Shown here: positions 3,361-46,663 of the stretch, in pieces | How the letters are laid out: every line of letters starts with the position of its first letter | Position numbering within the stretch: the first letter of the stretch is position 1 | From: a virus | Reading direction: 5' to 3' (one strand) | IMG/VR virus record: IMGVR_UViG_3300035704_000393 | Location: 1 to 64,000 of that record | Length of the DNA: 64,000 bases | Position numbers and translations under genes: made by a program | Notes under the pieces: generated by a model | Seen by the model: the letters and a program-made list of their open reading frames with translations, nothing else | Told to the model about the DNA's origin: nothing | Databases searched by the model: none

Positions 3361-3485
3361 GAGAGGACCACCGCGCACGCGGGACGCGTGGGCCGACGCG
3401 TGCCGTTGATGCCAAGGTTCAGATTGTTATCTTCGCCGGCCGGTAAACCTGGCAACCCCGCTGCGCGTCTGGATACTGTCCGAGC

Positions 3486-15365: not shown

Positions 15366-15665
15366 GTGCGGATACTGGCAACCTCCCGGACCTACATGTA
15401 CATCGAGATCGACCCGCCGCCCGAGATCGGCGACGTCACCCAGTACCCGCCCGAGGCCGCGCTGATCGCCGACAACGGAACCGAGCCCGCCGACACCGAC
15501 TACAGCGCCGCGTCGTGGATCTCCGGCAAGGTCGCCCTGCTCGTCGGACCCGGCGGCAACGGCGCCGTCTCCTACCCGGCCGGGGACTACTTCGCGTTCG
15601 CGCGGATCACCGCCGGCGTCGAGCAGGTCGTGCTCCCCTCCGGCCGGGTCCGCATCGGCCTGTGA
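15366..15665 (+). CDS. Hypothetical small beta-sandwich virion-associated protein
   Basis: ALLVGP...GDY..FARIT...EQVVL.SG pattern. Confidence 0.6.
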   Translation: MRILATSRTYMYIEIDPPPEIGDVTQYPPEAALIADNGTEPADTDYSAASWISGKVALLVGPGGNGAVSYPAGDYFAFARITAGVEQVVLPSGRVRIGL

Positions 15666-15716: not shown

Positions 15717-16010
15717 ATGAAAGTCTTCCGCTACGAGGTCCCGGACGACGACCAGTGGCACGAGATCACCCTGGCCGGCCCGATCGTGCACACGGCCATC
15801 CGCGACGGCGCGTTTCACTTCTGGGCGCTCGCCGGCGCCGGCAGCTCCGCCGCCGCGAAGCTGCGCCTGTTCGGCACCGGGGACGAGGTGCCCGAGGACA
15901 CGATGTACCGGGGCACTGCCATCACCGAGTCGGGGCGGCTGGTCCTGCACCTGTTTGAGGCGGCCTTGATGGCTAAGGACCAGCGCCGGACTACGGAGAC
16001 GACGCCGTGA
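15717..16010 (+). CDS. Small conserved phage protein (DUF7352-like)
   Basis: VFRYEVP...FWAL...FGTG.EVP...YRGTA...LVLHLFE. Confidence 0.6.
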   Translation: MKVFRYEVPDDDQWHEITLAGPIVHTAIRDGAFHFWALAGAGSSAAAKLRLFGTGDEVPEDTMYRGTAITESGRLVLHLFEAALMAKDQRRTTETTP

Positions 16011-16040: not shown

Positions 16041-17642
16041 GTGACCGCGTTCGCCCCGACCGACTGGCGGCGGCACACCAGCGAGGCATGCCAGCCCCAC
16101 CCGCGCACATGGCCCACCCCCGGCGCCCTGGCCCGCGCCCTCGACCACACCACCCGCGACTCCCTCGCGCTCCAGGTGATCGACCGGGAACTGGTCAAGA
16201 CAGCCGACCACCAGGTCGACGCCGGCGGCCTGATGATCTTCATGAGCCCCCAGGAAGGAAAGAGCCAGCGGGTCTCCCGCCGTTTCCCGCTCTGGCTGCT
16301 GGCCCACGACCCGTCGCTGCGCATAGCGATCGTCAGTTACGAGCAGGAATCCGCGGTCAGGTGGGGCCGGCAGATCCTCCGGGACATCCGGAGCGCGGAC
16401 CCGGCCGTGCTCGACGTCCAGCTGATGGCCGACAGCTCGGCCGCCGGCCGGTGGGACACCCGCGAGGGAGGTGGTGTCTACTGCGTCGGCGTTGGCGGTG
16501 CCTTGACTGGCCGTCCCGTCGACGTGTTACCCCTGCTTATTATTGATGACCCAGTGAAAGGCCGCGAGGAAGCCGAATCGGAGATCATCAGGTCCCGCGC
16601 CTGGGACTGGTGGGAAAACGTAGCACTCACGAGACTCGCGTCTAACGGCGTGGCGATCCTGATGATGACTCGCTGGCACGAGATGGACCTGGCCGGCGCC
16701 ATCCTGGCCCGGCCCTCCCCGATGCAGTGGCGCATCCTGAAGATCCCCGCCATCAGCCACGGCAAAGGCGACCCGCTCGGCCGCCCCGAAGGCGCCGAGA
16801 TGCCCTCGGTCCGGGACCGCCCGCCCGGCTACTTCACCCACCGCCGGGCCACGACCACCCCCTACGTCTGGTCCTCGATCTTCGACCAGCAGCCCACCGC
16901 GGCCGTCGGCAACTTCTTCCGCCGCCAGGCGTTCCGCTACTGGCGGACCGTCACCGGGCAGCCCGACCCGGCGCTCATCCTCGGCCGGCCCCACATGACC
17001 GGCGCGTGGATCGAGCTGGAAGGCCGCCGCCGCGTCGACCTCACCGACCCCGGCGTGTGGCGCTTCGCGACCTGCGACGTCGCCGCATCGGAGAAGACCT
17101 CCGCGGACTACACGGTGGTCTCGGTGTGGTGCATCGACCGGGAAGGCGACCTGATCCTGCTCGACCGGGCCAGGGGCCAGATCGAGATGGCCAACCACTT
17201 CGACATGGCCAAGCCGCTCCGGGACCGCTGGCACTACGACGTCCTGTACGTCGAGCACTCGTTCTACTCCAAGACCCTGGTCATCGACGCGCGGACCAAC
17301 GGCGTCCCGGTAGCCGAAGTCCAGGCGGACACCGACAAGGTGACCCGGGCCATCCCCGCGGCCGGCCGGCTCCACTCCGGCAAATGCTGGTTCCCCGCAG
17401 CCGCGCCCTGGCTCAGCGAGTGGGAAGACGAGCTGGCGTCGTTCCCGCGCGGCGCCCATGACGATCAGGTCGACTGCTTCTCGTACGCCGCCCGGATCGC
17501 CGCCGCGCACTGGACGCCGCCCCCGCCGCCGTCGCGGCCCGCCCCGGTCGGCCCTGACCTGGAGCGCATCGCCAGCGCCTACGCCGCCGGCACCGGGAAC
17601 GGCGACCACCACGTCGACATCATGAAACTGCCGCTGGGCTGA
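16041..17642 (+). CDS. terL: Terminase large subunit (Terminase_6-type ATPase plus RNaseH-like nuclease)
   Basis: Walker A PQEGKS, GVGGALTG, Walker B IIDDPVKG, motif III MTRWH, nuclease CDVA...DYT, FPRGAHDDQVD. Confidence 0.95.
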   Translation: MTAFAPTDWRRHTSEACQPHPRTWPTPGALARALDHTTRDSLALQVIDRELVKTADHQVDAGGLMIFMSPQEGKSQRVSRRFPLWLLAHDPSLRIAIVSYEQESAVRWGRQILRDIRSADPAVLDVQLMADSSAAGRWDTREGGGVYCVGVGGALTGRPVDVLPLLIIDDPVKGREEAESEIIRSRAWDWWENVALTRLASNGVAILMMTRWHEMDLAGAILARPSPMQWRILKIPAISHGKGDPLGRPEGAEMPSVRDRPPGYFTHRRATTTPYVWSSIFDQQPTAAVGNFFRRQAFRYWRTVTGQPDPALILGRPHMTGAWIELEGRRRVDLTDPGVWRFATCDVAASEKTSADYTVVSVWCIDREGDLILLDRARGQIEMANHFDMAKPLRDRWHYDVLYVEHSFYSKTLVIDARTNGVPVAEVQADTDKVTRAIPAAGRLHSGKCWFPAAAPWLSEWEDELASFPRGAHDDQVDCFSYAARIAAAHWTPPPPPSRPAPVGPDLERIASAYAAGTGNGDHHVDIMKLPLG

Positions 17643-17680
17643 CCGGGATTTTACGAAAAAACGCAACGTAAAAACCCCGG
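17643..17680. terminator. Stem-loop immediately after terL, possibly bidirectional terminator
   Basis: ccggg-a-ttttacg ... cgtaaaa-ac-cccgg. Confidence 0.6.
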
Positions 17681-17682
17681 CG

Positions 17683-18323
17683 CGGGGAGGGTAGCTAGTC
17701 CTCCCCGGCCGGGCCGTCACCGTACGCGCCCGGTGTCCACGGCGCCAGGACATCAGCGGACCGGGCTCGCGCCTGGTCACTCTTCACCGGTAGGCCGCGG
17801 TAGCTAATCCCCGCAGCCGGCTGCCGGCCTGGACGATCTGAAGTTGTAGGGACCGGCGAGAGGCTGAGGCCACGACGTCCCGTGGTCCCCTCCCGGCCGC
17901 GCGTCCTGAACGCCGGCCCCAGGTCTGTGTCAGTCAGAGGACCAGAGCGGGGCACCGGCCGGGATTATTGTCAGCTACCCTCCCCGGGTCGTGGCCACTC
18001 ACCGGATGCTCTCACCTATCGTCGTCCCGTTCGCAACGTTCGCTCCCGGTTTCGCTTTCACCGTTCACGCTCCGCAAGCCTTCGTTCAGGGATCGCCCTC
18101 CGCCTGTCGTTGCTCCCAAGTCCATGTTGGGGTCGTGGCGTCTGGGTCGTGGTCGTTAGCCGTCAGGGCTGTTTCATAGCGCTACTCTGCGGGCCGGGGC
18201 ACCTCCGTAGTCCGGTGCCCCGCTCTGGTCCTCTGTTGAGTTGTGACGGCCGGGGCCGGGGGGTTCCTTCAGCGGTGGTGTCCCGCTGCGGCTGATCCCG
18301 GTTCCGGGTTGTTCCCCGGCCGT
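17683..18323 (-). ncRNA. Candidate large structured non-coding RNA (or invertible DNA element); strand tentative
   Basis: No credible ORF; 24-bp perfect IR 17935-17958/18212-18235; 14-bp IR 17683-17696/17973-17986; 10-bp stem 18246-18255/18314-18323; promoter-like TGTTATACC on - strand just upstream. Confidence 0.45.
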
Positions 18324-18646
18324 TCACTAGGTATAACAAACCACCGCGGATTTAATTCCCGGTGACGGGAGAACATTTCCGGCCTGCCCCTGCAAGGCCG
18401 GGCTACGACGACCACGCCCAGATCCAGTTCTTCGGCCACCACCGCCACCGGAACCGCAGGCACGGGCACCCCGGCGCCGAGCACTCAGTCGGCGGCCGGC
18501 CCCCCGGCGACCGGTAATGCAGGTGACCCGCCCGGCGATCCCGGCACACGCAGACACGGTTCACGCTCGTCCCCTCCCTGGCCCGGGATCGTAACGGCCG
18601 CCGTGTCCCCCCCGCCGCCGAACCGCTGAAAGAGAAGGGGCTCCCC

Positions 18647-19354
18647 GTGCACGACCCCCTCGTGGTGGCCCACACCATCGTCCGGCCCTGGCCGCAGCGC
18701 AGCTCCCTGCCCGCCACCGGCAGCAGCGGCGACGGCGTGCGCTGGCAGATCCGCCACCACCACACCTGCACCAGCTACTGCCGGGACAACGACCCGCCCC
18801 ACCGGCCCGGCCCGTTCCCCTGGTGGAAACCCCGCTCCTACCGGCGGTTCTGGCGGCTCGCCGGCCGCGACTGGTACTGGCCGCCCCTGGTCACCATCTG
18901 GCACTCCGAGCCCGGCGGCGCCGACGCCCTCTCGGTCTGCCAGCGCCGCTACCGCGACTCCCGCGGCCAGTGGCGGTACTCCAAGGGCTGGAGGTGGCAT
19001 GTCCACCACTGGCACGTCAAGATCGAGCCGTTCACCACCTGGCGGCGGCGGCTGCTGACCCGCTGCGCCTGGTGCGGCGGCCGGTCCCGCAAACGCGACG
19101 AGGTGAACCACTCGTTTTCCTGGGACGGCCCCCGCACCCGCTGGTGGCAAGGCGAACCGGGCCTCTACCACCGCGACTGCTCGTCCGCCGCCTCCGCCCA
19201 CCGCCAGTGCGGCTGCGCCGAGCCCGCCCCGGCGCACGGCACGTGGGGCCACTGCCTGCGCTGCGACAAGCCCTACCCGTACGGCCGCACCCCGGAGCAG
19301 CTCGCCGTCATCCGGGCGATGGCCGCCGTTCCCGAGGGCACCCGGCCCGGGTAA
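18647..19354 (+). CDS. Hypothetical Trp/His/Cys-rich phage protein
   Basis: GAAGGGG RBS; CAWC, HRDC, CLRC motifs. Confidence 0.65.
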   Translation: MHDPLVVAHTIVRPWPQRSSLPATGSSGDGVRWQIRHHHTCTSYCRDNDPPHRPGPFPWWKPRSYRRFWRLAGRDWYWPPLVTIWHSEPGGADALSVCQRRYRDSRGQWRYSKGWRWHVHHWHVKIEPFTTWRRRLLTRCAWCGGRSRKRDEVNHSFSWDGPRTRWWQGEPGLYHRDCSSAASAHRQCGCAEPAPAHGTWGHCLRCDKPYPYGRTPEQLAVIRAMAAVPEGTRPG

Positions 19355-20728: not shown

Positions 20729-21235
20729 TTGCCCGATGCTACGCCTGGCCTATGCCAGTGCGGCTGCGGCCAGCCCGCGCCGATCGCCCCCCGCAACTAC
20801 CACGGCCGCGGCATCGTCAAGGGCCAGCCGTTCCGGTACATCCACGGGCACTCGGCCGGCTGGAAAGGCGATGACGTCGGCTACTACGCGCGGCACGCGT
20901 ACCTGCGCCGCCACTATCCCAAGACCGGGATCTGCGAGGAATGCCGCAACGAGGCCCGGACCGACTACGCCCTGATCCACGACCACCCGCCATCACGTAG
21001 CCGCGAAGACTACCGGGAGCTGTGCCGCGCCTGCCACAAGCAATACGACGGCGGCGGCGAGCGCAACTACCGGGCCAAGCTCACCGACGACGCGGTGAGA
21101 GACATCAGGCGCCGCGCGGCCACCGAGACAGTCTCGGCGCTAGCGCGTGAATACGACGTGGCCCGGTCGGCAATCCAGCGCGTCATTGACGGCCGCGGCT
21201 GGCGCCATCTGCTCTATCCGGAGGAACTAGGATGA
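20729..21235 (+). CDS. HNH-type homing endonuclease-like protein with N-terminal CxCGC and C-terminal HTH
   Basis: LCQCGCGQ...YIHGH; WKGDDVGY..RH; CEEC...LCRACH; AKLTDDAVRDIR...LAREYDV. Confidence 0.7.
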   Translation: MPDATPGLCQCGCGQPAPIAPRNYHGRGIVKGQPFRYIHGHSAGWKGDDVGYYARHAYLRRHYPKTGICEECRNEARTDYALIHDHPPSRSREDYRELCRACHKQYDGGGERNYRAKLTDDAVRDIRRRAATETVSALAREYDVARSAIQRVIDGRGWRHLLYPEELG

Positions 21236-21552
21236 CCGCTCAGGTCGAGCTGCCCGGCGTGGGCAAGGCAACGACGTGCGAAGCCTACGGGACCCACCGG
21301 CCGCAGCCTCTCCGGTTCGTTTGGCATCACGTCTTGCCGCAAGCATGCGGTGGTAAGACGGAACGTGACAACCTGGTATCTCTCTGCGACGGGTGTCACT
21401 ATTCCTGCCATGTCATCATGTGGTTGTTCGGCCACGGCGGCCTGCTCGGCGGGACCCCGCACGGCACCAAGGGGCAGCGGGCGATCGCCCAGCGCGGCTA
21501 CGACGAGGCGCTCGCCGCGGGCACCGCGGACAAGATCCCGAAGGAAGCCTGA
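21232..21552 (+). CDS. HNH endonuclease (possible packaging-associated)
   Basis: HHVLPQACGGKTERDNLVSLCDGCH. Confidence 0.8.
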   Translation: MTAQVELPGVGKATTCEAYGTHRPQPLRFVWHHVLPQACGGKTERDNLVSLCDGCHYSCHVIMWLFGHGGLLGGTPHGTKGQRAIAQRGYDEALAAGTADKIPKEA

Positions 21553-22445
21553 CCGGCCTGCACCGCAGGCCCGGCCCGGCCCGGCGGAAGATGCTATCTC
21601 GAAGTTCCGGGCCTCGGTCTCGGGACGTGCCCGTAGGAGCCAGAGGCGAGCGGCGCCACCAGGTAGCGTACCGCTTACGGCCCGTTACCGCCAGGGGCCG
21701 GGCGGCGCCACGCGAGCCAGGCCGGCAACCGCCCGCCGCGGGGCCGGCACGGCCCGGCCTGGTCCGAGCCGCCGCACACGAACCCCCGGTACTCGCAGCC
21801 GGTACCGGTGCGCAGCACGACGGCCCGGTAGCCGCACTGGCGGCCGGCCGGGCACGGGCTCCGCGCGCCGATCCGGGTGACCGCGGCTCCCTCGACCATG
21901 AGGAACTCCGGGCTCACGTCGGCCTTGGCAAGCTCAGCGCTCAGGTTCACGGGCGTCACGCTCCCGTCAACCCCCCCGAGATGTTGTGGGACTGCCGTAA
22001 ACCGTACTACGGCGCGGGGACGGCAGGCGTGACAACCGCGGGGTTTCGCGAGCCGGGCCGGCGGCGGGCCGGCAGGAAAGCCAGCCCGCCGCCGCACGGT
22101 TCCTCCGGGCCGACCTGCCGGGTCAGCCGTATAGGTGCGTGAACTCCGCGTCGTACTCGTGCATCGCCCGTCCTCCCATCTGGCCTGTCCGGCCCTGGCC
22201 GCCGGAGGCCGGGGCCGGACACCGGCACCGTAACAGCGCCAACCCGCGGCGGTCAACACGTCACCCTCCGTGACAGCCGTCGGTTCGCGATAACAGCCCG
22301 GGACCAGGCGCGGATGCAGGGTAAACCCAGGCCCGGGGCCGGCAGCGGCGCGGTGACACGCCAGCGAGCGGTGAAACTTGCATCGCCCGGCCCAGTGGAT
22401 TACGGTAACTGCGACCCTACCGCGCACAGAAGGTCACAGACCGTA

Positions 22446-23288
22446 ATGGCCGCCGAAAACTCGTCCGCCCGCCTGCTCGGCGCCGAGCTGCGCGGCTGGC
22501 GCGACCGCCGCGGCCTGACCGGCGATGCCGTCGCCGGCCGCCTCAGATGGTCCCCGTCCAAGGTCTCCCGCGGCGAGACAGCCACCACCCGGCTGATCCG
22601 CGCGGCCGACCTGGACAAGCTCATCGTCCTCTACCGGATACCGCCCGAGGACGCCGACCGGCTCCGCGGGCTGCGCGAAGCCGCCGCCGACGGCCTGGAC
22701 ATGACCGGCCCGGGCCAGGACCCCCGCATCGCCGAGCTGCTCATCTGGGCGCCCGACGTGTTCCCCTCTGCGTTCCGCACCGAGCTGTACGCCCGAGCCC
22801 TGATCCGGGCGATGCGCCGCATCCGCCGCTACACCCCGTCCGAGATCAAGGCGGAGATCACCGCCGACCGCGACCTGCAAGCCCGGCTCCGCGGCGACCG
22901 GGCCGCGGACAACGACGGCGACCCGCTGCCCCGGCTGCCCGTGACCTGCGTCCTGGACGAAGCCGTGCTGACCCGCCGCCGCGGCGCCACCTCGGTCATG
23001 GAAGGCCAGCTCGGCCGGCTCGAAGAGATGGCCCGCCTCGGCGGCGTGGAGATCCACGTCCTGCCGCTGGAGGCAGACGGCCCCACCAGTGCCCCGTTCG
23101 CCCTGCACGGCTACGACGACGAATCCGCCGATACCGTCCTGCTCACCAGCCCGTCCGGGACCGAGTACGTCACCGACGAGAAAGCCGTCACCAGTTACCG
23201 GTTCCTGCACGAGGACCTGGTAGGCGCCGCCGCCGACGTCGAAGAGACACTCGCCATCATCAAGCAGGCGAGAGGCCGGTGGGAATGA
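22446..23288 (+). CDS. XRE-family HTH plus DUF5753-type actinobacterial regulator
   Basis: LGAELRGWR..RGLT...VA..L.WS.SKVSR.E; C-terminal VLDEAVL.R..G...VM..QL..L. Confidence 0.85.
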   Translation: MAAENSSARLLGAELRGWRDRRGLTGDAVAGRLRWSPSKVSRGETATTRLIRAADLDKLIVLYRIPPEDADRLRGLREAAADGLDMTGPGQDPRIAELLIWAPDVFPSAFRTELYARALIRAMRRIRRYTPSEIKAEITADRDLQARLRGDRAADNDGDPLPRLPVTCVLDEAVLTRRRGATSVMEGQLGRLEEMARLGGVEIHVLPLEADGPTSAPFALHGYDDESADTVLLTSPSGTEYVTDEKAVTSYRFLHEDLVGAAADVEETLAIIKQARGRWE

Positions 23289-23944
23289 CCCCGATCGTCA
23301 CCGAGATCCGCGAAGGCGCCGTGATCACCGGCTGGGAAGTAATCCGCACCGGGCTGCGCCAGAGCGGCCAGCCCGCGGCCCGGTGCCGCTGCCCGGAATG
23401 CCAGGCCCAGCGGGTCATCCGGACCAGCACCCTGCGCGGCGGAGGCACCCGCCCCTGCCGGCACCGCAAGCCCGGCCGGGCGGCCCGCCGCGGCCTCGTC
23501 CGGCCGCCGCTGGGACGACCCGGCCCGTCCCGAATCCACGCCTGGGCCACCCAGCACGCCGCCGGCCGGACCTTCACCACCGCCGAAGCCGCCTCCGCAC
23601 TGGACATGAGCCGGCCCGCCGCCGCCCAGCACATCGGCGACCTGATCGAGGCCGGACACCTCGTCACCGTCCGGTACGCCTGCTACGCGCTGCCCGGCGC
23701 CGGCCCGTTCCCGCCGGCAGACCAGGCCGACCGGGAGAAGATCACCCTGTTCCTCGCCGCCGACGGCGGCGGCGCGTTCGCAGAGATCCGCGCCGCCACC
23801 GGGTACAGCTCCAGCCAGCTGACCGCCCTGCTCACGAAGATGGCCGACGACAGGCAGGTGATCCGCCTCGATGAGGGCCGCGGCGGGTTCTACCTGCTGC
23901 CCGGCCAGGAACCCGGCCAGGTCCTCGACATGCCCGGGACATGA
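23285..23944 (+). CDS. DNA-binding protein: NUMOD-like N-terminus and two winged-helix domains
   Basis: ATGA overlap; CRCPEC; FTTAEAASALDMSRPAAAQHIGDLIEAG; second wHTH EIRAATGYSSSQLTALL. Confidence 0.6.
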   Translation: MTPIVTEIREGAVITGWEVIRTGLRQSGQPAARCRCPECQAQRVIRTSTLRGGGTRPCRHRKPGRAARRGLVRPPLGRPGPSRIHAWATQHAAGRTFTTAEAASALDMSRPAAAQHIGDLIEAGHLVTVRYACYALPGAGPFPPADQADREKITLFLAADGGGAFAEIRAATGYSSSQLTALLTKMADDRQVIRLDEGRGGFYLLPGQEPGQVLDMPGT

Positions 23945-25541: not shown

Positions 25542-28500
25542 ATGCCGGCCCGAACGCGGATGAACGGCGTGCCGACCACCCCCGTCGGCCGCCCCGATGT
25601 GGTCTGGGGGCTCCCCGGGCAAGGGGGATTGCTCACCGAATGGGCCGAGACAGTTCCGGATCTGACGTGGCCGGAATCAATCCGGACATACGGGAGAATG
25701 CGCCGGGACAGCAAAATAGCAGCCGTTCTCAGCGCATTCTTCATGCCCATTCTCCGCACAAACTGGGCGGTCGACCCGGAAGGCGTCACCAAGGCTAAGG
25801 CGGTCGACCTGGTAGCCGCGGACCTGGGCCTGCCCGTGCTCGGCCAGAAGGGGCCGCCGCCCGCGATGGCCACCGTGCCCGGGTTCCACTGGGGCGAGCA
25901 CCTGCGGCTGGCGCTGCTGCACTACATCTACGGGTTTTTCCCCTTCGAGCGCTGGTACAACGCCAAGTCCAAGGACGGCCTGACCCATCTGGCCGGCCTG
26001 GACGAGCGGCTGCCGCACACCATCGCGCTGATCGACCTGGCCGACAACGGGCAGATCAAGTCGGTTACGCAGAACACCCAGCTGAACCCGCTTACCGCTA
26101 ACCGCCTTTTGTGGTACGTGAATGAGCGCGAAGGCGCGAACTGGGCGGGCGTGTCAATGCTCCGCGCGGCCTATACCCCGTGGGTTCTCAAGCACGAGAC
26201 AATGCGCGTTCATGCCACCAGCATCCGCCGGTGGGGAATGGGAATGCCGGTCGTCAAGGCGCCCCCCGGCGGCACCCCCGGCCAGGTCTCCCAGGCGCAG
26301 CAGCTCGCCTCGGGGATGCGGGCCGGGGACACCGCCGGCGTCGGCCTGCCCGACGGGTTCAGCGTCGAGATCGCCGGGATGACCGGCTCCGTGCCCGACG
26401 CGCTCGGGTTCCTGAACTACTGCGACCAGCAGATCGCCTCCGCGGCGCTGGCCGTCTTCCTGGAACTCGGCCTGTCCTCCGGCGGCGCCCGCGCCCTCGG
26501 CGACACGTTCCTGGACATGTTCCTGCTGTCGCTCCAGGCAGCCGCTGACGCGATCGCCGACACCATCTCGTACGGCGTGCCCGCCATGCCGGGCATCGCC
26601 CGGGCGCTGACCGACATCAACTTCGGCGAAGACGAGCCGTGCCCGCGGATCGTCGCGACCGACGTCGGCGACCGGCACGAGATCACCGCCACCGCGATCC
26701 AGCAGCTCGTCATGTGCGGCGCCGTCCAGCCCGACGACGGCCTGGAAGCGTTCATCCGGCAGGCGTGGGACTTCCCCGCCCGGACCACCCCGCGGACCCC
26801 CCCGGCACCGCCCAAGGCCCCCGGGGCGCCCGGCGGCCCGCCGAACCCGGCCGCGCCGTCCAGCCCGAATCCGGCCGCGCCCGGCCCGCAGCCCGGCGCG
26901 CCCCGGCCGCTCACCGGCCCGCCCGGCCGCCGCGGCGGGCAGCCCGCCACCGGCCCGGCCCGCTCTGCCGGCGGACCGACAGCAGCCGCCGGCGTGGAAG
27001 CAAGCGCCGGCGGCGGCCTGCGACGCCCTCTGACGGAGCTGGAGGCCGCCGCCGGGCTCGACCCCGAAGCCATGCGCGCCGACCTGGAAACCGCCACCAG
27101 CCGGGTACTCGGCCAGTGGGGGTCCGTGCTCCGCGCGCAGCGCGCCGACCTCGCCGACCAGGTAGCCGCCGCCGTCGATGACGGGCAGCTGCACCAGCTC
27201 GCCGCCCTCCAGGCCCCGTCCGGCGACGCCGCCGACGTGCTGTACCGGGCGATGGCCGCAGTCGCCGCCCGCGCCGCCGGCCGGATGGTCGCCGAAGCGG
27301 CCGGGCAGGGCGTCACCATCAACCTGGCCGACGTCGCCATCAACCACCCCCGGCTCCGGCAGCTCGCCACGGCCCGGGCCTTGATGGCCGGCCAGACGCT
27401 GGCCACCGCCGCGTCCCGCCGTGCCCTCCAGGTCGTCACCGCCACGGCAGGCACCGACGCCGCCCGCGAAGTCACCGCTGTCCTGGCCGGCCTGTCACCC
27501 AAGCCGCTGGCCGACCAGCTGACGGCCGCGATGCACTCCGCCGCCAACGAGGCCCGCTTCGCCGTGCTCGACGCCGGCCCCGGCGCCACCTACACCGCCA
27601 CCGAGCTGGCCGACGACCCGAACTGCTGCCAGCCCTGCCACGACGTCGACGGCCACCAGTTCGCCAGCCTCGCGGATGCGCGAGCGTCCTACGCCAACGG
27701 CGCCTACATCCACTGCCTCGGCGGGCTCCGCTGCCGCGGCACCGTCGTCGCGTCCTGGCCCGAGGAAGGCGGGCAGCCCGCCGAGCCCGGCTGGCCGCAC
27801 AACCTGACCCCGCCGCCCGACCTCACCATCGGCCCGGGCGTGGCCGCCGGGTTCGACCCCGGCGAGCGACGCGACCCGCACACCGGCCAGTGGACCGGAG
27901 AAGGCGGCAGCACGGCCCGCACCCTGACCCGCAAGGGCCACGGGAAGCTATCCGCCGTCGACCGGCTCGGCGCCATCCGCGCCGACGGCACCTTTGAGCC
28001 CATCACCGCCGCCGAAGGCGCCCGCGGCGACTCCCGGCCCGTGTCGATGGCGGAGTTCCAGCGGCTCGCCGCCGAAGGCCGCGAGAAGCTCGCCCGGTTC
28101 CGCGCCGAGTCCGCCGCACCCGCCGGCCTGGACGCCAAATGGGACACGATCAAGAACGACGCGTGGGCCGAGGTGCAGAAGCCCTGGGGCGGCGCCACCA
28201 TCGACGCGCACACCGGCGAGCCCCTCCAGACCGCCGCCGCGCGGTACGCGCTCACCGTCAAACCGGTCGACCTGGACCCGGTGTCGGTCCCGGAGAAGGC
28301 GTCCGAGGCCCAGTTCAAGGCCGCGATGGACGAAGCCCGGCGGCGGTTCGCCGACCAGCTCGCCGCCCGGCAGGCATACCTCGGCGTGTTCCACGACGAC
28401 GACCAGGGCCGCATCGACATCGACCCCACCCTCGTGGTCGACAACCTGCACGACGTCGAGACCATCGGCGCGTTCACCCACGCCATCGGCGGCGCGTACA

Positions 28501-45203: not shown

Positions 45204-45605
45204 GTGCCCGACTACACGCCGGTATTCCTCCCCGGCCTGACCATCACCCTCATCGCCGCCGCCGGCCTGACCGGCGGCGACCCGGTGGAAGTCGGCGGGT
45301 CCGGAACCGTCCAGAAGGTCACCGCCGCCGGGTCGATGCGGTACGTCGGCATTGCCGCCCACGACGCCATCGCCGGCTACCAGGTCACCGTGATCCTCGA
45401 CCGGGCGGTGCACGAGGGCGCCGCCGACGGACCCATCAACGCCGGCGACCAGCTCGCCGCCTCACCCAGAGCCGGCCACCAGGTCACCCAGCTGCCCGCC
45501 GCGCTCACCGCCGCCGCGGCGGACGTCAACCTGGCCCGCGCCGTCATCGGCGTGGCCCTGACCTCCGCGGCCGACGGCACCACCGTCCGCTGGATGCAGC
45601 GGTAA
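45204..45605 (+). CDS. Capsid cement/decoration protein, paralogue 4 (more divergent)
   Basis: GGGAGG RBS; DYTPVF...LTGG..VEV...VGIAAHDA...IGVALTSAADG. Confidence 0.75.
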   Translation: MPDYTPVFLPGLTITLIAAAGLTGGDPVEVGGSGTVQKVTAAGSMRYVGIAAHDAIAGYQVTVILDRAVHEGAADGPINAGDQLAASPRAGHQVTQLPAALTAAAADVNLARAVIGVALTSAADGTTVRWMQR

Positions 45606-45721
45606 CCCCCCACCCGCACAACGAGCCAACCACAGGCCCGCCCGGGCCTGCGGGCTGCACTGATACCCCACCGCGCCGGGGGTCGGCAGGCACATTCCCT
45701 CACGAAAGGAAATGACGGGAA

Positions 45722-46663
45722 ATGCCCCACATTTATCCTCCGGCTGCGCCGACTCTTTCCGGCGACATTCTCACCATCAGCCGTTTCCTGAACAGCCCCG
45801 CGCTGGTTCAGAGGCGGCTTCGGACAATCGCCGAGGCGCGATTCATCGCGGACAGCATTTTGTCCGGCAGGTACGAGACGAGTGGGGGCGCTTTGCTTTA
45901 TGAGCAGACCGAATCCATTTACACCAGTAAGCCGCCCGAGGCGGTAAATGCGGGTGCAGAATACCCGCGTTCGCCGGCGGCTCCCGGTCCCGCGGCATTG
46001 GCGGGAATTACAAAATGGGGCCAGGATGTGCCCATTACCGATGAGCATGTTCACCGGTACGGGAGAAGGGCAGTGGATGTCGCGCTGCTCAAGATCGTGA
46101 ACTTCCTCGTCAAGCAGGTCGACACCACCGCCCTGGTGGCCATCGGCGCGGCCATCCCCGTCGGCAACCAGATCGCCGCCACGGCCGGATGGGACACCCC
46201 CGCGTCGTCCAACATTCTGTTTGACCTGATGAGGGCCAAGGCGCAGATCGAGCAGTTCGACCAGGGATACACCGCGGACACGGTGATCACCACCGACCTC
46301 GGCGTCGCCCGGATCGTCGCCGACCGGAACATCATCGCCGGACTGGCCCGCGAGGGCGCGACCACGGTCACCTCATCGGGTGAGCTGCGGGAAATCGGCG
46401 GCCTGCGGATCATGGCCACCAATAATATCCCCGCCCTGTCCAGCTATAAGGCGTTCGTGGTCGACTCCACCATGCTCGGCGGCCTCGCATACGAAAGGCT
46501 GGAAAGCCCGGAATACGCCGGCGATCCTGCCAACGGCGTGGAGTCCTGGACCCGCCGCGACCCGTCCGCAAATGACCAGTGGCTGGTCCGCGGAAGGCGC
46601 CCTGTCGTGCCGATCATTCAGGAGCCGAACGCGGCCGTCGCCATTACCGGCACCACCGGCTGA
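45722..46663 (+). CDS. Major capsid protein
   Basis: 313 aa after protease/scaffold/cement; PE.V..GAEYP, KWG....ITDE, P.I.EP.A motifs of actinophage HK97-fold capsids. Confidence 0.85.
   Translation: MPHIYPPAAPTLSGDILTISRFLNSPALVQRRLRTIAEARFIADSILSGRYETSGGALLYEQTESIYTSKPPEAVNAGAEYPRSPAAPGPAALAGITKWGQDVPITDEHVHRYGRRAVDVALLKIVNFLVKQVDTTALVAIGAAIPVGNQIAATAGWDTPASSNILFDLMRAKAQIEQFDQGYTADTVITTDLGVARIVADRNIIAGLAREGATTVTSSGELREIGGLRIMATNNIPALSSYKAFVVDSTMLGGLAYERLESPEYAGDPANGVESWTRRDPSANDQWLVRGRRPVVPIIQEPNAAVAITGTTG

Follow-up and report, generated by a model that had tools for sequence, protein, structure and literature searches.

The DNA analysed here, hereafter the window, is the first 64 kb of the 73.7-kb IMG/VR record IMGVR_UViG_3300035704_000393, which is classed as a provirus (estimated completeness 94%) and has a GC content of about 72%. 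Directly behind its large terminase gene, terL, lies a gap that we find to be a genuine insert, bearing repeats and confined to this phage lineage. Phage morons, in the concept of Juhala and Hendrix, are extra transcription units with a promoter and terminator of their own that sit between genes adjacent in related phages, and we tentatively read the gap as a moron-like insert of 987 nt carrying a leftward non-coding transcription unit. The plus strand holds terL and all genes rightward through the portal gene, which starts at 25542, and the stretch from terL to p235, the first real gene beyond the gap, contains the following features.

16041-17642, plus strand: terL, large terminase and left neighbour of the element (Pfam Terminase_6N and Terminase_6C; PHROG 38 at E 2.6e-79)
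17638-17642, no strand: left junction direct repeat GCTGA at the very end of terL, within CCGCTGGGCTGA
17649-17673, no strand: AU-rich hairpin (UUUUACG / CGUAAAA) just 3' of the terL stop, giving the minus-strand U5 and U6 tracts
17670-17713, minus strand: predicted leftward intrinsic terminator, with a 14-bp GC-rich one-bulge stem (17713 to 17676), a 9-nt loop, G, U5 (17674 to 17670) and then U6
17683-17696, both strands: repeat arm A, within the terminator hairpin (loop and 3' arm on the minus strand)
17714-17929, minus strand: GC-rich helical stretch from the terminator to the long stem (fold computed for 17660-17934)
17930-17958, both strands: arm B of the long stem (24+3 bp)
17959-18211, minus strand: loop of 253 nt closed by B and B', with three CCACGACCC motifs and GCGAA(A)C-type motifs (the latter read by eye)
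17973-17986, both strands: repeat arm A', inside the 253-nt loop and 14 nt from arm B
18212-18239, both strands: arm B' of the long stem, the inner part of which alternatively pairs with 18195-18203 (local 9-bp hairpin)
18246-18323, minus strand: irregular hairpin domain with a 10-bp closing helix (18246-55 / 18314-23), same fold on both strands
18309-18337, plus strand: candidate rightward sigma-70-like promoter, TTGTTC (18309-14), 17 nt, TATAAC (18332-37), in the only AT-rich patch
18362-18629, plus strand: right end of the insert, with coding-like third-position GC (GC3, 0.87) in one frame and two in-frame stops
18625-18629, no strand: right junction direct repeat GCTGA, within CCGCTGA (18623-18629)
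18647-19354, plus strand: p235, a Cys/His-rich protein of an unnamed family

The GC3 signal, strong in every gene here, vanishes after the terL stop and does not return until about 18361, which makes 17643 to ~18361 the longest stretch in the window to go without it. No small open reading frame (ORF) in the gap pairs codon bias with a ribosome-binding site (RBS). Searches of 5.8 billion clustered proteins with the 137-aa and 51-aa ORFs found no homologue. An exact look-up of eight gap ORFs showed that none has ever been called as a gene in the protein collection, the same collection that does contain terL, p235 and p225 of the window phage; a search of the gap for tRNA and tmRNA genes likewise returned none. 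The sequence-only reading from which this analysis started had seen no credible ORF after terL, and on the coding evidence we concur. Further right, a weak frame of 51 codons (18362-18517, plus strand, GC3 0.87) runs in the same frame as p235 and meets TAA at 18515 and TGA at 18524. Protein searches with the 18362-18629 segment found no homologue; it could represent either an orphan ORF of 51 aa or the remnant of a dead gene that arrived with the insert.

Judged by its ends, the gap looks like an indel of 987 nt (17643-18629) flanked by GCTGA: excising it leaves the terL stop, 17 nt with the p235 RBS, and the p235 start. Its GC content is 63-67%, against about 72% in the flanks. For comparison we drew on the neighbourhoods of terL and p235 homologues, 109 loci in all; the best terL match in the viral, genome and metagenome collections scanned was 69% identical. 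The coding signal is back 0-350 nt after terL in 30 high-GC relatives whose terL is 46-69% identical. The portal gene follows terL by 0-1.5 kb in the relatives where it was mapped, sometimes behind a p142 homologue, compared with 7.9 kb in the window phage, the gap being the left edge of the 7.9-kb accessory island that separates the two genes. One relative known from its proteins is closer still, with a terL C-terminal part (361 aa) 90% identical and a p235 homologue (236 aa) 81% identical to those of the window phage. The longest contigs for these two proteins are both 1820 nt and the products need 1797 nt, leaving about 17-20 nt between them and not 1 kb; as judged from these contig and product sizes alone, the relative appears to have a terL-p235 junction without the 1-kb insert.

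Inside the insert a 24-bp perfect inverted repeat (17935-17958 / 18212-18235) is the sole perfect long inverted repeat in the window; it was reached by none of 100 dinucleotide shuffles and has no third copy in the record. Beyond a small 2x1 internal loop it gains three further pairs (17930-32 / 18237-39), and the resulting stem is computed at -60 kcal/mol as a duplex, with a pairing probability of 0.99 on either strand (0.996 on plus). The sequence-only reading had picked out this repeat, a second repeat crossing it, and local hairpins competing for the outer arms, and each of these is really present. The second repeat is a perfect one of 14 bp (17683-17696 / 17973-17986) that stands to the first in A-B-A'-B' order and, with about 1 in 100 shuffles reaching 14 bp, is marginally significant; the hairpins are 18195-18203 / 18214-18222 (-22 kcal/mol) and 17683-17690 / 17700-17707. 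All pairs of both repeats are Watson-Crick pairs with no wobble, and they fold equally on both strands. Arm A' belongs to a longer resemblance, as it lies within ~40 nt (17955-17994) that partially repeat the terminator hairpin in inverted orientation, at 76% identity. Short motifs also recur locally in the gap in both orientations, and the gap showed no significant complementarity to the rest of the window.

The domains around the long stem differ in how well they fold. The 253-nt loop is purine-rich and U-poor on the minus strand (A 26, G 35, C 28, U 11%). To its left, 17660-17934 folds at -145 kcal/mol (z score -3.2) as minus strand and at -133 kcal/mol (z score -1.5) as plus strand, and is the only domain to favour the minus strand, by 12 kcal/mol. 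To its right, a separate multibranched domain closed by 18246-18255 / 18314-18323 had been proposed, and this proposal survives in part: a hairpin domain does fold there, but its closing helix is at chance level, helices of at least 10 bp being reached in 37 of 100 shuffles. The native energies of this 110-nt domain are -51.4 and -50.9 kcal/mol on the two strands, with z scores of -3.2 (minus) and -1.9 (plus) from 200 shuffles; the minus-strand value had been -4.8 with 40 shuffles, and in a background series of 110-nt windows with fewer shuffles about 4% lay at -3 or lower. The strand difference in z arises because the shuffled backgrounds differ, the native energies being equal.

At the end of the gap that adjoins terL, the minus strand carries a predicted intrinsic terminator of regular anatomy, with a GC-rich stem-loop (-31.9 kcal/mol), a U tract within 1-2 nt and the U6 tract a few bases beyond U5. 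Of the nine places where either strand of the 64 kb has a hairpin with a T run behind it, this is by far the strongest, and a dedicated terminator scan flags it too; on the plus strand the hairpin is without a U tract. Such a leftward terminator after terL is absent in 29 of the 30 relatives, the other (L058) having a weak site. A T-rich hairpin had been noticed earlier at 17643-17680 and is real, but its neighbour, the 14-bp GC hairpin with U5 that makes up a canonical leftward terminator, is the more telling of the two. If the terminator works, a leftward transcript should cross the gap, since the genes rightward for many kb are all on the plus strand; we consider such a minus-strand transcript plausible, the strongest terminator pointing left and the strand being purine-rich.

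As regards promoters, we sought a TTGACA-like -35 and a TANNNT -10 spaced by 16-19 nt. The candidate TTGTTC-17-TATAAC reads rightward; counting both strands (128 kb), the window has six sites of this kind, of which this one has the best -10, without the final T of TANNNT. The minus-strand promoter box TGTTATACC of the sequence-only reading turns out to be the reverse complement of this better rightward promoter, and no minus-strand site passes the scan.

The gap belongs to no known RNA family. Searches of Rfam 15 gave no match at E of 1 or below in 3 kb, a best E of 0.94 (12-17 bits) in 1 kb, and nothing at gathering score in the whole window, so that membership fails even at permissive thresholds. 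By blastn the gap matched nothing in phage and plasmid records, exact IMG/VR searches with four of its 20-25-mers found no match, and 401 sampled Actinomycetota genomes yielded only chance-level, GC-rich matches of 30-70 nt. The sequence-only reading had proposed to look for homologues downstream of related terL genes; blastn and tblastx against the 109 loci returned nothing beyond low-complexity noise. With no relatives found, the gap cannot be established as a new structured RNA. The structure is real and unusual for this genome, but an orphan.

Taken together, we hold it quite possible, though at rather less than even confidence, that the gap is a moron-like insert with a non-coding unit transcribed leftward. 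The insert would then act like a phage moron with RNA, not protein, as its cargo. A minus-strand transcript of ~0.65-0.9 kb would start near the AT-rich patch at ~18330-18590 and end at the strong terminator adjoining terL, so that no antisense RNA would run into the packaging gene, while the rightward promoter of the same AT-rich patch would serve the accessory genes. In the leftward RNA, or in any late messenger reading through, the 24+3-bp stem would close the little-structured, purine-rich loop and is predicted to turn any transcript that crosses it into an RNase III-type substrate open to cleavage, regular double-stranded RNA of about 20 bp or more being what that enzyme calls for and the gap offering 24+3 pairs at a probability of 0.99. 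The 14-bp repeat, being part of an inverted partial copy of the terminator hairpin, could compete with it as a long-range antiterminator.

The likeness to morons lies in the position of the insert, which separates terL from the genes that come next in relatives, in its GC content, lower than that of its flanks, and in a strong predicted terminator of its own that opposes the late operon. It differs in that its cargo has no ORF, no leftward promoter was found and no second occurrence of the module is known. Enterobacterial prophage cassettes for non-coding RNA (the DicF and STnc100 families of Rfam) offer another parallel, being ORF-free, hairpin-rich, equipped with a terminator and located within the structural or late region of a phage. 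The gap is, however, unrelated to them by sequence or by Rfam and its host is a high-GC actinobacterium; it is also much longer, with one very long perfect stem round an unstructured loop.

Several observations weigh against a leftward transcription unit with a structured RNA as its product. All-Watson-Crick repeats that are equally stable on both strands suit a recent origin at the DNA level as well as they suit a role in RNA, the 253-nt loop folds worse than its shuffles on both strands (z +2.4), and the fold of the whole region reaches a z of only -3.1 (minus) and -2.5 (plus), mostly from one stem. No homologue was found in any collection searched, and there is therefore no covariation. The scan found no canonical minus-strand promoter in the gap and no minus-strand TANNNT between 17725 and 18587, the TATACC on that strand being without the conserved final T. 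The computed -32.6 kcal/mol for A' paired with the terminator's 3' arm, against -31.9 for the terminator's own hairpin, is a bimolecular duplex energy that omits the cost of closing a loop of ~280 nt. Finally, the relatives at 46-69% terL identity do lack the insert, while its absence at 90% identity is deduced from sizes alone and not from DNA sequence.

The main rival is that the gap is DNA-level debris in a mosaic junction, that is, captured foreign intergenic DNA of which the terminator and promoter are the only working parts, the repeats being young foldbacks, from template switching or from inverted duplication of short modules like the terminator hairpin, that have no role in RNA. We consider this somewhat unlikely, while acknowledging that much of the above agrees with it: the perfect, strand-equal pairing of both repeats, the place of A' within a degenerate inverted copy of the terminator hairpin, the short motifs recurring locally in both orientations, the loop less structured than shuffles, the lack of homologues in any collection searched, and a right end resembling a dead gene fragment. 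The 5-nt microhomology at the junction is, moreover, typical of illegitimate recombination. What speaks against it is that a perfect repeat of 24 bp is unique in 64 kb, which indicates that such repeats are not routinely generated here, and that a terminator facing left implies transcription in that direction across the repeats.

The long stem might, in another reading, do its work on the plus strand, as an RNase III site in late messenger reading through from terL that uncouples terL from the accessory and portal messages, in the manner of the T7 R sites or of lambda sib retroregulation. The stem is as stable on that strand as the reading demands (-60 kcal/mol, probability 0.996), and because terL through portal are all on the plus strand, late transcripts may cross the gap. 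Like the T7 R sites, lambda sib and the stems of rRNA precursors, the gap has double-stranded RNA (24+3 bp) that brackets a long segment; the known sites, by contrast, are conserved, often have internal loops and have mapped cleavages. The transcript may already stop at the two hairpins just behind the end of terL, the relatives do without any such site, and the leftward terminator is left unexplained. We regard a plus-strand site of this kind as improbable.

Slimmer still are the prospects of the view that the segment from B to B' (301-310 bp) is a non-autonomous mobile element set in non-coding DNA, either a miniature inverted-repeat transposable element (MITE) or a palindrome-associated IS200/IS605 derivative. 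A MITE-like nature had been suggested earlier, and the size of the segment and its 24-27-bp terminal inverted repeats do fit one; the gap as a whole also has subterminal imperfect inverted repeats (17667-91 / 18572-96, 72% complementary). The other marks of such elements were looked for without success. No target-site duplication is seen at either possible boundary (flanks ...TGTGTCAGT and TTGAGTTGTG), no second copy was found in the 73.7-kb record, in phage and plasmid records, in the exact IMG/VR searches or in the 401 Actinomycetota genomes, and no remnant of TnpA (Y1) or TnpB was detected in the gap (PF01797, PF01385, PF07282). The ultra-small mobile elements of mycobacteriophages (MPMEs), which are elements of actinophages, invite the same comparison, as a segment of ~300 bp with terminal inverted repeats in a phage of Actinobacteria; apart from having no target duplication or other copy, the gap segment differs from an MPME in having repeats far longer than 11 bp and in lacking the MPME ORF.

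The boldest reading takes the leftward transcript for a new large phage RNA, in which a 27-bp stem closes the purine-rich loop of 253 nt and A' unzips the terminator ~270 nt downstream as a pseudoknotted antiterminator, thereby deciding whether antisense RNA runs into terL and gating packaging in lysogens. We think this a remote prospect, its support as a new class of large switching RNA being thermodynamic alone. The sequence-only reading had proposed a large structured RNA of unknown class or else a conformational switch. The first finds no support, given the absence of any Rfam match or homologue in the collections searched, the poor folding of the loop and the strand-equal Watson-Crick repeats; the second retains the single computed point that A' pairs with the terminator's 3' arm about as strongly as does that arm's own 5' partner. 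This is the likeness to attenuators and to the expression platforms of riboswitches, in which the 3' arm of a terminator has two alternative partners, here of similar computed strength. In the gap, though, the competitor sits ~270 nt upstream and its pairing would be pseudoknotted with the long stem, and neither an aptamer nor a leader peptide is recognisable.

Very improbable, in our estimate, is a unit resembling a type I toxin-antitoxin system, with the plus-strand ORF at 17991-18179 as toxin and the leftward RNA as its antisense partner. This ORF encodes 62 aa, or 57 aa if translation starts with the ATG at 18006; the long-range stem encloses it entirely and it fits exactly within the loop, and the N-terminal 19 residues are borderline hydrophobic (mean Kyte-Doolittle ~1.6 by hand calculation). 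The hok messenger, too, combines long-range closure with competing local hairpins in a layout that the gap resembles. Yet the ORF has no RBS, its GC3 is 0.63 (hand count) against ~0.9 for genes here, the hydrophobic stretch includes three prolines, and a protein atlas search gave no usable match; moreover, ORFs of ~60 aa are expected by chance in DNA of 65% GC. Less credible again is a decayed protein-coding gene. Its base skews resemble those of a transcribed minus strand, but GC3 stays flat whichever frame is read and shows no peaks that switch frame, tblastx and protein searches gave only low-complexity noise, and the minus strand has G in excess of C, opposite to the coding strands of this genome. 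Least credible is an invertible DNA switch or shufflon-like element using the two interleaved pairs of inverted repeats, which flank ~250-280 bp much as the ~300-bp invertible element of the sequence-only reading would, for the whole 73.7-kb record encodes no detectable serine or tyrosine recombinase (PF00239 and PF00589 profiles, with positive controls matched) and 17959-18211 holds no promoter-like site or credible ORF that could serve as directional cargo.

Should the leftward RNA be real, the locus would exemplify a non-coding moron in a high-GC actinobacterial prophage, of which we know of no other case, although no survey of the literature was made for one. The terminator/antiterminator geometry, if true, would let a prophage shield its packaging gene or switch it off. 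The locus is at present one unconserved sequence, from a host that is uncultured, and is therefore of low general importance; its useful results are negative ones: no known RNA family, no invertible switch with a recombinase of its own, and no demonstrable mobile element.

Besides p235, p225 and p142, the accessory island to the right of the insert comprises, among others, genes for an HNH endonuclease (21232-21552) and an XRE-type regulator with HTH_31 and DUF5753 (22314-23288); a MarR-like winged-helix stretch was seen within ORF 22547-23944. Actinophages are known to carry sets of genes between terminase and portal (cluster EC; PMC7302621). The family of p235 counts 253 cluster representatives (50% clustering) at E up to 0.001, with W85, H86, P89, C98, H118, C140, C143, H175 and C178 invariant, and its position shifts among relatives, from upstream of terL (L041) to a different setting (L110). 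We considered p235 as a possible homing endonuclease; its AlphaFold model is confident (predicted local distance difference test score 84) but has no fold match in the PDB by Foldseek or VIA-align; the best structural match, at Z 2.5, covers a RING-like zinc-knuckle region only.

To the left, two small plus-strand genes (15717-16010 and 15366-15665) lie 5' of terL, one being DUF7352 and the other, of 99 aa, being conserved ahead of terL in most relatives; both are candidates for the small terminase. While terL of the window is intact, many close terL relatives (75-90% identical) are called as a C-terminal ORF of 361-363 aa that starts exactly at V172 of DDPVKGREE, and N-terminal pieces of at least 150 aa also occur as separate products among relatives. 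This conserved break at V172 suggests that those phages have an intervening element there, and other terL relatives have an intein (PF14528, PF14890; 893-923 aa).

Two further places in the window were noted. The second-largest non-coding stretch (~600 nt), at 45556-46155, has convergent terminator-like hairpins with T runs at ~45858 (plus) and ~46015 (minus), and a promoter-like TTGATG-16-TATCTT lies at 3406-3433 on the plus strand, inside a 375-nt gap of low GC3.

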